64,000 bases of DNA, taken from positions 86,452 to 150,451 of the forward strand of contig JBLWTG010000004.1 in NCBI GenBank assembly GCA_048270225.1. The letters run 5' to 3'. The stretch comes from Pusillimonas sp. GTDB taxonomy: Bacteria; Pseudomonadota; Gammaproteobacteria; Burkholderiales; Burkholderiaceae_B. The first letter of the stretch is position 1; each line of letters opens with the position of its first letter. The position numbers and the translations under genes are program-made. The notes under the pieces were generated by a model. It did no database searches and had not been told where the DNA came from. It saw only the letters and a program-made list of their open reading frames with translations. Below, piece after piece: positions 56,399-61,326 of this stretch.

Positions 56399-57133
56399 CT
56401 ATGTCCACGCCAGCAGCGCGCTGGATGCCGCGATCAGCGCCAGCCCTGCTGTTTCCGTGCGCAGCACGCTGCGCCCGAAACTGACCGGCGTCAGGCTGTG
56501 CTGCTGCGTGAGCCGCAGTTCGTCGTCGGACCATCCTCCCTCTGGGCCTACCAGCAATGTCAATGAGGCCTCGACCTGGTCGAGCGCCTGGGCCAGGGTG
56601 CGCTGCGCGCCGGGGTGGCAGAACAGTGTCGTTGCGGGGTCAGGTGTGCTGTTTTCCAGGTAGGCTTGCAGGGTGCAGGGTTCGTGGATGTCCATCAGCC
56701 GATTGCGTCCGCACTGCTCGCTGGCGGACAGCGCGATGCGGCGCCAGTGAGCCAGCCGCTTGCGCAGGCGGTCTCCGGACAGCTGCAGCACGCTGCGGTG
56801 GGCGAACACAGGCTGTACCTCGGCAGCGCCCAGCTCTACCGCTTTTTCGATGATCCAGTCCATTTTGTCGCCTGAAGGTATGCCTTGCACGAGGACGATG
56901 CGCCCGCCCAGTTCGGTTTCGATGGGGGCGTGCGCGCCCAGCCTGGCATAGCCCTGTTTGCCGTCGATGATCAAGTGGCCTGGGTATTGGCCTCCCTGGC
57001 CGTCGAACAGGACAAGCGGCGCGTCGGGCTTGAGCCGCAGCACGCGAATGGCGTGGTGGGCGAGGGCGTCGGGCAGGGCCACGGTGCTGTCGGCCGTCAG
57101 CGGGCCGGGATGGAAGAATCGGGGCAGGGTCAT
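56399..57133 (-). CDS. rsmE: 16S rRNA m3U1498 methyltransferase
   Basis: HHAIRVLRL, KAVELG, VGPEGGW, VLRTETAG. Confidence 0.95.
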   Translation of the reverse strand: MTLPRFFHPGPLTADSTVALPDALAHHAIRVLRLKPDAPLVLFDGQGGQYPGHLIIDGKQGYARLGAHAPIETELGGRIVLVQGIPSGDKMDWIIEKAVELGAAEVQPVFAHRSVLQLSGDRLRKRLAHWRRIALSASEQCGRNRLMDIHEPCTLQAYLENSTPDPATTLFCHPGAQRTLAQALDQVEASLTLLVGPEGGWSDDELRLTQQHSLTPVSFGRSVLRTETAGLALIAASSALLAWT

Positions 57134-57251
57134 GGCAACAGGGGCGGCGACGGAAAACGGAGTGCTGTGGTTGATATGGCGTGAGTGCAGCCAGCGGGGT
57201 TGCGGCTGTCGTGCGTCAAGCATACTGTACCGCAGGGTGGTGCGGCTTTGC

Positions 57252-58125
57252 ATGCTTTCTGTTGACGGGCGGCGCGCGCATCTCCTGTCTTCCGGTGCAC
57301 GCTGTGCCGGTGCGGTGCTCGTGTGTTGAGCGTGGCTTGGGCTGTGTGCTGTCTATTGACGGTCGATGCGCAGCTTCCCTGTCTTGCGGCACAAGCTGAG
57401 CCGGTTCGGCGCCCACGCGCCGAACATCGCATCGGCTTGCTCGTCCGGGCCCTGCGGCCCTCCCTTCGCGAGCGCCTTGCTCGGCTCAGATAGTGCCTTC
57501 AGACAGGGAAGCTGCACACCGCCCTGCGGTGAATATTGACGGGACGCCGCCGGGGCGGCCAGCGTGCTTGGCCTTCTTGCGGTGTGCTGTGCCTGTGCGA
57601 AAGACTTCTTGCGCTCGTGAACATGGGCCCCACTATCTGGGCCCATGTTCACGTCGGAGCGTTGGTTGCTGAGGGATGTCCTTGTGCAGCGCTGGCTGTT
57701 GGGGGCGCGCAGCGCTTTGAAGCCGTCCATCTGCGCGCCCAGCCAAACACGTGCACGGCCTTGCCGTAGCAGGCGCCCCGCCGTGAAAACCCAGCCTTTC
57801 GCCCTCCCACGCCCCGACGTGAAGACGGCCCCAGATAGTGGGGGCCGTCTTCACCAGCGCAAGAAGTCTTCCGCCAGGAGCTAAAGCAACGCAAAAAGGC
57901 CAAGCAAACAGACCGTCCCAACGGCGCCCCGCCATCATTCACCGCAGGGCGGTGTGCAGCTTTCCTGTCTGAAGGCACTATCTGAGCCGAGCGAGGCGGA
58001 GGCGAAGGGAGGGCCGAACGGCCCGGACGAGCAAGCCGATGCGATGTTCGGCGCGTGGGCGCCGAACCGGCTCAGCTTGTGCCGCAAGACAGGGAAGCTG
58101 CGCATCGACCGTCAACAGAAAGCAT
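57252..58125. repeat. Nested inverted-repeat element: two ~370-bp copies head-to-head plus a degenerate partial copy, bounded by 17-bp perfect terminal IRs
   Basis: 57356-57451 is the exact reverse complement of 58020-58115 (96 bp); 57452-57534 vs 57937-58019 differ at 7 of 83 positions; ATGCTTTCTGTTGACGG (57252-57268) pairs with 58109-58125. Confidence 0.95.
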
Positions 58126-58254
58126 ACGCAACCCCTGCACCCCGCGTCCCAAAACCCCATACCCGCCCCAATGGTAAAATCGATTGCTTTGCATATCCTT
58201 CAATATCGAGGGGCCGGCCTGCTTACCGGGACGGCGCCTTTTGCGAGTGTTCCG

Positions 58255-60300
58255 ATGAGCCTTACCCCTGCCCAAGATACCTCCATGGCCAATGCAATCC
58301 GCGCCCTGGCCATGGACGCAGTCCAACAAGCCAACTCGGGACATCCCGGCGCCCCCATGGGCATGGCCGACATCGCCGAAGTCCTCTGGACCCGCCATCT
58401 GCGCCACAACCCCGCCGACCCTGCATGGCTGGATCGCGACCGCTTCGTACTGTCCAACGGCCACGGCTCCATGCTGCTGTATGCCTTGTTGCATCTGACC
58501 GGCTACGATCTGCCCATCGACGAACTGCGCAACTTCCGGCAATTGCACTCGCGCACCCCCGGCCACCCCGAAGTCGGCATGACCCCCGGTGTCGAAACCA
58601 CCACAGGCCCCCTGGGCCAGGGCATAGGCAACGCAGTCGGCATGGCGCTGGCCGAAGCCCTGCTCGCGCAGGAATTCAACCGCGAAGGCCACAAGGTCGT
58701 CGATCACTACACCTACGCATTTGCCGGCGACGGCTGCCTGATGGAAGGCATTTCGCACGAGGCCTGCTCTCTGGCCGGCACGCTCAAGCTGTCCAAGCTT
58801 ATCCTGTTTTACGACGACAACGGCATTTCCATCGACGGCCACGTCGAAAGCTGGTTCGGCGACAACACTCCGGAACGCTTCGCGGCCTATGGCTGGAATG
58901 TGATTCCCAACGTGGATGGGCACGACGCCGCCTCCATCGAAGCGGCCATCGAGCAGGCGCATCAGTTCGCCGCCCAGGCCAAGGGGCCGACCATCATCTG
59001 CTGCCGTACCGTGATCGGCAAGGGTGCGCCCACCATGGCCGGCACCGAAAAAGTGCACGGCGCGGCGCTGGGCGAAAAAGAAATCGAAGCCACGCGCGAA
59101 GCGCTCAACTGGCCCTATCCGCCGTTCGACATTCCGAAAGAAATCTACAGCTACTGGGATGGCAAGCAAAAGGGCGGCCAGCTGCAGGCGCAATGGCAGC
59201 AAGGCCTTGACGCCTATGCTCAGGCCTACCCGCAGGAAGCCGCCGAACTGCAGCGCCGCATGCACGGCGAACTGCCGGCCGATTTTACTGAGCGCGTGCG
59301 CGCCTTCATACAGCAAACCAACGACAAGGCCGAAACCGTTGCCACCCGCAAGGCATCGCAACAGGCCATCACGGCTCTGGTCGAGATGCTGCCCGAAATG
59401 CTGGGCGGGTCGGCCGACCTGACCGGCTCCAATCTGACCAACTGGAAGGGTGTGGAGCCCGTGCGTGCAGGCGACCTGCACCTGCGTTTCGGTCGTCACA
59501 TCAACTACGGCGTACGCGAATTCGGCATGGCTGCCATCATGAACGGCATCGCCCTGCATGGCGGTTACCTGCCATTTGGCGGCACCTTCCTGACCTTCTC
59601 GGATTACTCCCGCAACGCCATCCGCATGGCGGCGCTCATGAAACAGCGCGTCGTGCATGTGTTTACCCATGATTCCATCGGGCTGGGCGAAGACGGCCCT
59701 ACCCACCAGTCCGTCGAGCATGCGGCCAGCCTGCGCCTGATCCCCAATCTCCATGTCTGGCGTCCCTGCGACACCACCGAAACCGCGGCCGCCTGGGCCT
59801 ACGCAATCCGTCGTCCGGTCAGCATCGGCATGACTGTGCGCGAAGGCGGCCCCAGCGCATTGCTGCTGTCGCGCCAGAACCTCGAGTTCGTGCCGCGCGA
59901 CGAGCAGGCCATTGCCGACATCAACCGCGGCGGTTACGTGCTGCGCGACGCCAAAAATCCCAAGGCGGTGATCATCGCCACCGGTTCCGAGGTAGGGATT
60001 GCGCTGGCTGCGCAAAAACAGCTGGCCGACAAAGGCATCGCCGTGCGTGTGGTGTCCATGCCGTGCGCCAATGTATTCGATGAGCAGGACCAGGCCTGGC
60101 GCGACGCCGTGCTGCCCAAGGGGCTGCCGCGCGTGGCGGTCGAGGCCGGCGTTACCTGGGGCTGGTACAAGTACGTGGGTGTGGACGGCGCGGTGGTGGG
60201 CCTGGACCGCTACGGCGAGTCGGCCCCCGGCGGCGAGCTCTTCGAGTATTTCGGGTTTACTGCCGGCCATGTCGCCGAGGCAGTGGAAAAGGTTCTATAA
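58255..60300 (+). CDS. tkt: Transketolase
   Basis: [30 protein letters not shown]. Confidence 0.97.
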
Positions 60301-60315
60301 AACAGGAGTGAAGTA

Positions 60316-61326
60316 ATGACTATTCGCGTAGCGATCAACGGGTACGGCCGCATTGGCCGCAATATCTTGCGTGCGCACTATGAAGACGGCAAGAAGCACG
60401 ATATCGAAATTGTGGCGATCAACGATCTTGGCGATCCCAAGACCAACGCACACCTCACCCGCTTTGATACGGCCCATGGCAAGTTCCCCGGCACCGTCAC
60501 GGTCGACGGCGACTACATGGTTGTCAATGGCGACCGCATTCGCGTGCTGGCCGATCGCAACCCGGCAGCGTTGCCCTGGGGCGAGCTTAACGTGGACGTC
60601 GTGCTCGAGTGCACCGGCTTTTTCGCCAGCAAGGAAAAAGCCAGCGCCCACCTGCAAGGCGGCGCCAAGAAAGTCATTATCTCCGCACCGGGCGGCAAAG
60701 ACGTCGATGCCACCATCGTGTACGGCGTGAACCACAACGTGCTCAAGTCCAGCGACACGGTGATCTCGAACGCATCGTGCACCACCAACTGCCTGGCGCC
60801 GCTGGTCCAGCCCCTGCATCAGGAGCTGGGCGTGCTCAACGGCCTGATGACGACGGTCCACGCCTACACCAACGATCAGGTGCTGACCGACGTTTATCAC
60901 TCCGACCTGCGTCGCGCGCGTTCGGCAACGCACAGCATGATTCCCACCAAGACCGGTGCTGCTGCGGCGGTAGGCCTGGTGCTGCCTGAGCTCAACGGCA
61001 AGCTCGATGGCTATTCCATCCGTGTTCCGACCATCAACGTTTCCATCGTCGACCTTTCCTTCGTGTCGGCCCGTGAGACCACGGTCGAGGAAGTCAACGG
61101 CATCCTCAAGGCGGCATCCGAGGGTGCGCTCAAGGGCATTCTGAACTTCAACGAAGAGCCGCTGGTGTCGGTCGACTACAACCACGACCCTGCCTCCAGC
61201 ACTGTCGATGCCGCGCTGACCAAAGTGTCTGGCTCTCTGGTGAAGGTGTCCTCCTGGTACGACAACGAGTGGGGCTTCTCCAACCGTATGCTGGATACCA
61301 CGGTTGCGTTGATGGCGGCCAAGTAA
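60316..61326 (+). CDS. gap: Glyceraldehyde-3-phosphate dehydrogenase type I
   Basis: [29 protein letters not shown]. Confidence 0.98.

Follow-up and report, generated by a model that had tools for sequence, protein, structure and literature searches.

The rsmE-tkt locus

The window analysed here is a 64,000-nucleotide (nt) stretch of a Pusillimonas sp. genome (assembly GCA_048270225.1, contig JBLWTG010000004.1, positions 86,452 to 150,451), and our subject is a long palindrome in the spacer between two divergent genes, an rsmE-like gene and the transketolase gene tkt, the latter followed by a glyceraldehyde-3-phosphate dehydrogenase (GAPDH) gene at 60316-61326. The 5' end of the rsmE-like gene is homologous in six congeners; its name is that given in a preliminary description of the locus. 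We are inclined to see in the palindrome a copy of a non-coding 'foldback' element that is restricted to one lineage and had not been described before.

The imperfect palindrome spans 784 bp (57344-58127). A repeat finder resolves it into outer arms of 241 nt (57344-57584 and 57887-58127, 90% complementary) and inner arms of 69 nt (57597-57665 and 57806-57874, 86% complementary). An ungapped comparison that starts from the outer ends agrees with the preliminary description that the outer 96 bp are perfectly inverted, that seven mismatches follow over the next 83 bp and that similarity then decays; the inverted repeat reaches about 12 bp beyond the outer limits given there (57356-58115). All stems named in that description were found, namely a 15-bp stem (57370-57384/57501-57515), which is the core of a 23-bp stem (57361-57383/57502-57524), the 8-bp stem CTGAGCCG/CGGCTCAG and the hairpin GTTCGGCGC-CCAC-GCGCCGAAC (57404-57425). 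A single arm folds at -188 kcal/mol, with z-scores against shuffled sequences of -9.9 on the plus and -9.1 on the minus strand. As had been noted, no transposase or credible open reading frame (ORF) lies inside, because the ORFs are mirror images of each other and their frames are broken by 1- and 2-nt indels across the family.

Table 1. Features of the rsmE-tkt region, in window coordinates, and further copies in the same genome, as contig:positions.
Feature	Position	Strand	Basis or remark
rsmE-like gene (left flank)	56399-57133	-	ORF list; probable start is the ATG at 57133 (MTLPRFF...)
ATACTGTA motif, rsmE side	57222-57229		comparison of filled and empty spacers; kept in empty-site relatives
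Degenerate partial extra copy of the outer unit part	57231-57318	-	genome self-BLAST and direct-repeat family D2
Left arm, one full unit	57344-57670	- (folding strand, toward rsmE)	inverted repeats I1 and I2; family alignment; strand test
Left module A	57353-57532	-	covariance model R1 match, 159.4 bits, E = 3.6e-32
Left hairpin B	57616-57653	-	inverted repeat I6; 15-bp perfect stem; loop CACTATCT (plus-strand reading)
Doublet centre, variable, without ORF	57671-57805		ORF list and comparison with other copies
Right arm, one full unit	57806-58127	+ (folding strand, toward tkt)	inverted repeats; family alignment; strand test
Right hairpin B	57819-57854	+	inverted repeat I7; 14-bp perfect stem, sequence unlike the left copy
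Right module A	57939-58118	+	model R1 match, 157.7 bits, E = 8e-32
TGGTAAAAT, extended -10-like, upstream of tkt	58172-58180	+	conserved at filled and empty sites; outside the element
tkt, transketolase (right flank)	58256-60300	+	ORF list, translations; 5' homologues in all seven genomes of the genus
Further doublet	C2:78499-79371		whole-genome BLAST
Further doublet	C14:49946-50645		whole-genome BLAST
Single unit	C14:58699-58927		whole-genome BLAST
Single unit	C2:205922-206152		whole-genome BLAST
Single unit	C2:213184-213474		whole-genome BLAST

Unit anatomy

Alignment of about 60 units reveals a common plan, in which the unit measures about 330 nt and two units, inverted around a variable centre, make a doublet of 0.7-1.6 kb. 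In other copies the centres are 0.15-1 kb long and unrelated in sequence. Read in the folding sense, each unit begins with a short C/T-rich lead, followed by CCGA(C/A)(G/U)G, hairpin B, GCGCAAGA and a variable linker, and continues with an A-rich GCCAAGCAC box, CCGUCCCAGCG, UGCAG and module A. The stem of hairpin B has 12-16 bp and is perfect in every copy, with a sequence that differs between copies. Module A opens with P1 (about 20 bp), an internal loop, P2, P3 and a junction bearing a composite P4, in which a hairpin of 4-5 bp accompanies an internal loop rich in purines (GAAGGGA/GGACGAG). It proceeds through P5 (GUUCGGCGC-loop-GCGCCGAAC), the 3' strands of P3 and P2 and the 3' strand of P1 to CGUCAANAGAA. 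P1 is hypervariable in sequence and always complementary. The core is non-coding, as genera differ by the 1- and 2-nt indels within it, and the two ends of the element carry a terminal inverted motif (TTCTNTTGACGG ... CCGTCAANAGAA).

In the window, the helices of left module A are P1 (57361-57383/57502-57524), P2 (GGCAC/GTGCC) and P3 (CTGAGCCG/CGGCTCAG), and its junction bears P4 and the invariant hairpin P5 at 57404-57425; in right module A, P5 lies at 58046-58067 and the terminal motif CCGTCAACAGAAAG at 58109-58122. The partial copy on the rsmE side (C4:143682-143769 in contig coordinates) matches 58059-58146 in reverse with 76% identity in a BLAST search of the own genome and contains a second terminal motif, TTTCTGTTGACGG, at 57256-57268. 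Short runs of GCTC-type tetranucleotide repeats (GCTCGCTCGGCTC, GCTTGCTCG) stand in the conserved core beside the three-way junction (57470-57490 and 57433-57445, with mirror positions in the right arm), and could be a protein-binding feature.

Several other readings of these parts were tried and set aside. A small ORF or type I toxin is contradicted by frames broken by indels and by stop positions that are unlike between the arms. The hairpin B loop CACTATCT is complementary over 8 nt to AGATAGTG of module A (I12), but other genera do not preserve this, and it is thus no conserved pseudoknot. Nor do variant copies show covariation for a pseudoknot that would join the CCGTCCCAGCG box to the GGACGAG loop. 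A role of P1 as guide or spacer was dropped because its matches elsewhere in the genome do not exceed chance.

Many units are followed outward by tandem repeats, each ending in the terminal motif. In Allopusillimonas ginsengisoli these are partial units of 140 nt that start just past the 5' strand of P1 and abut head-to-tail, and other genomes have outer-end arrays with periods of 19-49 nt. For example, the A. ginsengisoli tkt locus has about 7-9 iterations of a 23-bp unit with GATTCTGTTG just outside one arm (L160, reverse-complemented, about 440-620; L173, 3434-3591), and a doublet of a distant genus has inverted arrays of 27 nt, repeated 8.6 and 5.7 times, at its two ends (L255, 44-276 and 2033-2186), together with inner 18-nt arrays. 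The outer end is constant and the inner end variable, which suggests either that copying is polar or that events recur at the outer end. The terminal arrays also resemble sets of protein-binding sites. Outside the elements, the terminal motif is not enriched in the genome (25 matches versus 17 for a control motif), and for want of enrichment solo sites elsewhere were rejected as operators. Some truncated tandem copies (L169, 3255-3560; L170, 3773-4052) show a strand-asymmetric kind of decay: what sets them apart from full units is mainly the change of CG to CA on the folding strand, such as GACGAGCGAGCCGATG to GAACAAGCAAGCCAATG.

Covariation and the folding strand

The fold is supported by extensive compensatory change. 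RNAalifold, run on 31 non-redundant module A sequences, predicts 50 pairs, 32 of which show compensatory double changes, including 19 of the 20 pairs of P1. In the alignment, 95.1% of cells are paired, versus 73.5% in shuffled alignments and 35-41% when the partners are slid; double-change cells number 299 versus 93 expected, and the covariation score is 0.53 versus 0.14 (shuffled) and 0.08-0.11 (slid). The P1 stem remains paired even though its divergence is about three times faster than that of the core. P5 behaves otherwise: its stem is invariant within the subfamily with a varying loop, and in a distant genus it has changed symmetrically from GTTCGGCGC to GTCCGGCGC (GTCCGGCGC...GCGCCGGAC).

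The folding strand can be read from wobble pairs. For a neutral, alignment-free count, we set each P1 5' arm against its own 3' arm in reverse complement, with symmetric scores, and tallied the transitions. Wobble-type transitions in P1 number 46 on the outward strand (reading from the centre to the outside) versus 10 on the inward strand. The corresponding counts from alignment A1, 91 versus 11 (p = 8e-17; P1 alone, 36 versus 8), are inflated, as the structure was predicted on the favoured strand, a bias from which the 46-versus-10 count is free. Replication-linked mutation bias cannot explain the asymmetry, because every doublet holds both orientations; indeed, every doublet seen, more than 30 across genera, is (-)(+) in the sense of the model, i.e. 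divergent. The wobble bias therefore means that the functional form is a single strand of defined polarity. The outward-reading strand folds into the conserved architecture; in the window, the left arm folds on the minus strand and the right arm on the plus strand.

Resident copies offer a further view of the fold over time. The order dsbD, element, hemB recurs in at least nine genomes of several genera, the element being present as a single unit or a doublet (L186, L189, L197, L191, L207, L209, L022, L102, L156). Among the dsbD/hemB copies of three congeneric species, P1 differs by four fully compensated substitutions and two G.U pairs (folding sense), and the cores differ by about 6%. In one other genome, eight units each have their own P1 sequence, and all are paired. 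These comparisons show that the fold is kept by selection in resident copies, including same-locus copies of related species, a pattern that is unlike a recently expanded, decaying family of MITEs (miniature transposable elements with inverted repeats).

Copies, distribution and novelty

Whole-genome BLAST finds nine units in this genome, arranged as three inverted doublets and three singles (Table 1); short partial copies adjoin the doublets, that at 57231-57318 among them. The doublet on contig C2 that is collinear with the window doublet (on C4) matches it entirely, in reverse, at 85-95% identity and including part of the centre, and the doublet was therefore copied as one piece. A. ginsengisoli KCTC 22046 has five doublets and many partial units, with at least 10 full units, and the family occurs in none of the five other species of the genus.

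To survey relatives more widely, the family search used a covariance model over the 178 best-conserved positions. Carriers number 67 of 401 genomes, in 19 of 51 genera, all of the same taxonomic family, and about 390 genomes from other families of the order gave no match to the model. Complete genomes hold 10-24 copies each. All named matches from the species collection are of Alcaligenaceae type (Pollutimonas, Candidimonas, Eoetvoesiella, Orrella, Pusillimonas and Achromobacter sp.). Plasmid and phage collections yielded no copy of the element, Rfam 15 returned only two chance-level matches to miRNA precursors (E = 0.11 and 0.87, far under the gathering scores), and no description of the element was found in the literature. 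The palindrome thus belongs to a new, lineage-restricted, non-coding and dispersed element whose canonical form is the doublet.

These results bear out the preliminary description in its call for a copy count and for empty rsmE-tkt alleles, which exist in five congeners. Its wording, 'an undescribed non-autonomous mobile unit or structured ncRNA' (non-coding RNA), was fair, given a multicopy element with no Rfam match, absent at the same site in five congeners and with very strong covariation. Single-copy status, want of homologues and want of covariation, which it named as grounds for giving up the idea, are clearly not what is found.

Insertion at rsmE-tkt and its history

The rsmE-tkt spacer measures 1122 bp here and 1155 bp in A. 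ginsengisoli, compared with about 150-240 bp in the five congeners without the family. The inserted block is bounded by ATACTGTA (57222-57229), its left limit, and TGGTAAAAT (58172-58180), both conserved in empty sites; the latter may be a tkt promoter element. The element enlarges the rsmE-tkt promoter region about five-fold. Conversely, the loci corresponding to three A. ginsengisoli doublets are empty in this genome. At rsmE-tkt and two other filled/empty pairs no target-site duplication is visible, in comparisons whose flanks are 15-25% diverged and whose ends carry extra partial copies.

This species shares the insertion at rsmE-tkt with A. ginsengisoli, and at pntB, too, both species have a filled locus. 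At these two loci the arms are only about 76% identical, versus 91-97% for tkt, and the arm at the A. ginsengisoli tkt locus is closest (88%) to the arm at the gcvT locus of this genome. Copies have therefore been exchanged between loci, by gene conversion or re-insertion. In the history we propose, the element would have reached the divergent rsmE/tkt spacer in the common ancestor of the two species, and the copy there may later have been overwritten by, or exchanged with, paralogous copies.

Other neighbours of the element include pntB/aldehyde dehydrogenase, HI0933-like/gcvT and dsbD/hemB. By a crude gene call based on GC content at third codon positions, applied to 40 loci of which some are orthologous and so not independent, doublets lie between convergent genes in 14 cases, tandem genes in 6 and divergent genes in 0, and singles in 10, 8 and 2 cases, respectively. 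The window copy, assigned by hand from the ORF list, is one of the rare cases at a divergent site; sites such as rsmE-tkt are avoided by most family members.

Search for partner genes and autonomous versions

Candidate partner genes were sought with Pfam profiles in 41 relatives and set against carrier status (G000 is this genome and G002 A. ginsengisoli). For the Y1 transposase of REP-associated tyrosine transposases (Y1/RAYT, PF01797; REP, repetitive extragenic palindrome), a scan of 41 genomes gave no match in the carriers G002, G015 and G020 and, in G000, nothing but a fragment of 41 positions at the end of a contig; the non-carriers G001, G003 and G006 have several matches. TnpB (PF07282) does not track the presence of the element, and no TnpB or IscB gene is adjacent to it. 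Reverse transcriptase (PF00078) is absent from the carriers G008 and G015 and stands beside no copy, the Y2 transposase of IS91 (PF04986) is absent from the carriers G000, G002, G015 and G020, and IS256 is absent from this genome and other carriers and does not track presence. No doublet centre examined holds an intact gene, and no transposase-bearing version occurs in any genome examined, complete genomes included.

Two loci have unusual content between their units. In this genome, two solo units in divergent (-)(+) order (C2:205922-213474; L017, 5923-13475) enclose a 7-kb low-GC island (47-57% GC). In it lie genes for a chromate transporter (chrA), for an alpha/beta hydrolase and for a glyoxalase, two pairs that resemble HigB/HigA, one of which is disrupted, and fragments of transposases of the IS3 and IS4 types. 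Insertions could have split a doublet here, or the whole could be a composite. In A. ginsengisoli, one doublet centre (L026, about 2180-2690; G002 C22:384830-385340) contains, in tandem, three copies of about 200 bp of a fragment of an IS256-family transposase gene, on the reverse strand (...LRKIIKTRGQFPSDEAALKLLWLA...).

RNA, single-stranded DNA or conventional transposon

Which molecule folds is a separate question from whether the outward strand does. We lean towards RNA. Such RNA would arise by transcription that runs outward from the centre or reads through from genes nearby, and could serve as a structured module at gene ends (e.g. to protect or process 3' ends) or be a free ncRNA. Several observations weigh against it, beside the inflation of the alignment-based wobble count. 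DNA hairpins also tolerate G.T wobbles, and because of this the strand bias does not separate RNA from single-stranded DNA (ssDNA). No conserved promoter stands upstream of hairpin B, where only a C/T-rich stretch is common to the copies, no sigma-70-like promoter was detected inside the window element, and outward of module A there is no U-tract terminator; the opposite, inward strand has a weak hairpin with U5. In appearance, the iteron-like arrays and the palindromic, invariant P5 are closer to DNA sites bound by proteins than to features of an RNA, and the enrichment between convergent genes is equally expected of a tolerated selfish insertion.

That the folded molecule is instead ssDNA is a lesser possibility, which we keep alive because the unit has no promoter or terminator of its own, has terminal arrays and has an invariant palindromic P5. 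Formulated as a mechanism, and then somewhat doubtful, the outward strand would fold when exposed, e.g. as lagging-strand template or during transfer, a nuclease, primase or recombinase acting in trans would recognise the fold, and the terminal array would be its double-stranded binding site; on this view the doublet is comparable to two inverted signals, each strand-specific, for initiation or cleavage. The wobble bias fits this as well as it fits RNA. Also in its favour are the outer ends, where several genera have tandem copies of the terminal motif, with periods of 19-49 nt, or else partial units of 140 nt, and a P5 stem that is invariant within the subfamily, varies in its loop and changes symmetrically in a distant genus. 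Geometry would also allow it, in that forks or unwinding starting at the centre would put both folding strands on the displaced or lagging template. Against ssDNA, neither Y1 HUH nor Y2/IS91 enzymes track the element's presence and no partner was found, plasmids and phages carry no copies, the terminal motif is not enriched elsewhere, and the conservation of syntenic resident copies across genera is not obviously predicted by a purely selfish DNA signal.

Explanations that need no folded strand fare worse. A conventional MITE, derived by deletion from an insertion sequence of DDE type, mobilised in double-stranded form by a transposase with affinity for the terminal inverted motif, and with incidental hairpins, would account for the terminal inverted motif, for patchy presence within the genus with filled and empty sites, for the preference for intergenic sites that are not promoters and for the IS256 transposase fragments in the A. 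ginsengisoli centre. We nevertheless consider it improbable: a double-stranded mechanism needs no complementary stems and predicts no strand-biased wobbles, old resident copies keep perfect stems, and no target-site duplication is visible in three filled/empty comparisons, diverged as their flanks are; nor does any genome examined have a transposase-carrying version, IS256 being absent here and from other carriers. Still less credible is a dedicated cis-regulator, a leader or operator of the tkt-gap-pgk operon or of rsmE. The position between divergent genes, with both arms reading toward them in the folding sense, invites that view, but the same element lies beside unrelated genes, with most copies between convergent ones, and five congeners have tkt without it. 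Because of these many unrelated contexts and element-free congeners, a dedicated role in tkt regulation is unlikely; a local side-effect on tkt or rsmE expression is conceivable.

The same description had invoked REPINs (pairs of inverted REPs) mobilised by RAYT enzymes, or elements of IS200 type. An inverted doublet of palindromic units in intergenic DNA does recall them, and yet we give a REPIN, or an IS200/IS605-type palindrome-associated element, hardly any credence. A. ginsengisoli, with its at least 10 full units, lacks a Y1_Tnp match, as do G015 and G020, and G000 has its fragment only; TnpB likewise fails to follow the distribution of the element; the unit is some ten times as long as a REP and occurs in tens of copies per genome, not hundreds; copy number and size are also far from those of enterobacterial repetitive intergenic consensus (ERIC) sequences; and the two arms fold on opposite strands, whereas IS200/IS605 elements have end hairpins on one strand. 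A one-off local inverted duplication or an assembly artefact would explain the near-perfect outer 96 bp and nothing further. The chance of it is negligible, and an artefact is ruled out, as the element is multicopy here and the same architecture recurs both at a second species' orthologous site and in many complete genomes, which represent many genera.

Returning to RNA, a more far-reaching and rather speculative form of that reading is that the units constitute a structured RNA class of their own, new and of large size (about 330 nt), encoded as divergent pairs on a self-propagating non-coding element, with the RNA aiding copying or targeting and a family-restricted machinery acting in trans. 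This would explain the constant outer (3') end with its tandem 5'-shortened copies, the hypervariable and paired P1 and the absence of a cis-encoded protein.

Relation to known elements

REPs and REPINs, with their RAYT enzymes, are similar in being intergenic, inverted pairs of palindromic units for which single-stranded structure is thought to matter. They differ in scale and partner, as REPs are about 20-40 nt and REPINs about 100 nt long, occur in hundreds of copies and have a cognate Y1 HUH gene, compared with a unit of about 330 nt, a doublet of 0.7-1.6 kb, about 10-24 copies and no RAYT correlation here. ERIC sequences (or intergenic repeat units, IRU) and Correia elements (NEMIS), small structured repeats of MITE-like type whose folds form within transcripts, are likewise non-coding, imperfectly palindromic and dispersed between genes, and are often co-transcribed with their neighbours; long duplexes in their transcripts would be substrates of RNase III. 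They are single palindromes of 100-160 bp with similar copies, whereas the present element has a multi-helix junction, hypervariable compensated stems, a strongly conserved core, divergent doublets and terminal arrays.

The eukaryotic foldback (FB) transposons share long inverted arms with outer tandem sub-repeats and a variable, usually non-coding centre. They belong to another domain of life, and the likeness is architectural only; to our knowledge, FB arms do not carry covarying junction structures. Strand-specific folded signals with conserved loops and variable stems, arranged as an inverted pair and with direct-repeat arrays, are found in ssiA/ssiB beside the iterons of IncQ-type oriV and in the single-strand origins of rolling-circle plasmids. 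Those are plasmid-borne, single-copy signals of about 40-200 nt with a known primase or Rep protein; this element is chromosomal and dispersed and has no plasmid match. Finally, large structured bacterial ncRNAs whose function is unknown or was found recently, such as the HEARO/omega RNAs of IS605-type elements and the ROOL and GOLLD RNAs, are similarly hundreds of nucleotides long, have many covarying helices and a link to mobile or repeated DNA, and were discovered by comparative genomics; the present element differs in having no Rfam match and no adjacent TnpB or IscB gene, and its RNA status is predicted from sequence.

If the folded molecule is RNA, it would be a large, richly covarying ncRNA class that is in no database, spans at least 19 genera and comes in obligate divergent pairs. 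If it is DNA, a dispersed chromosomal, strand-specific hairpin signal with iteron-like arrays would imply an undescribed nuclease, primase or recombinase. On either reading the element is a defined and easily testable object, as A. ginsengisoli KCTC 22046 is a type strain, and it accounts for long 'empty' intergenic regions in Alcaligenaceae-type genomes.

Additional observations

Two further repeats were seen in the course of these comparisons. Two A. ginsengisoli doublets (G002 C28 and C32; loci L172 and L171) have a (GGCATA)n microsatellite, 6-14 copies long, within their variable centre. Many contigs of Longimicrobium metagenome-assembled genomes (L044, L056, L064 and others) show the same 9-bp GC-rich hairpin pattern as P5, GTTCGGCGCC-N3-4-GCGCCGAACA, without a match to the family profile. 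Both these and actinobacterial matches to the P5 pattern were considered as family members and rejected, being unrelated by profile search; the Longimicrobium hairpins are probably an unrelated repeat family of their own.

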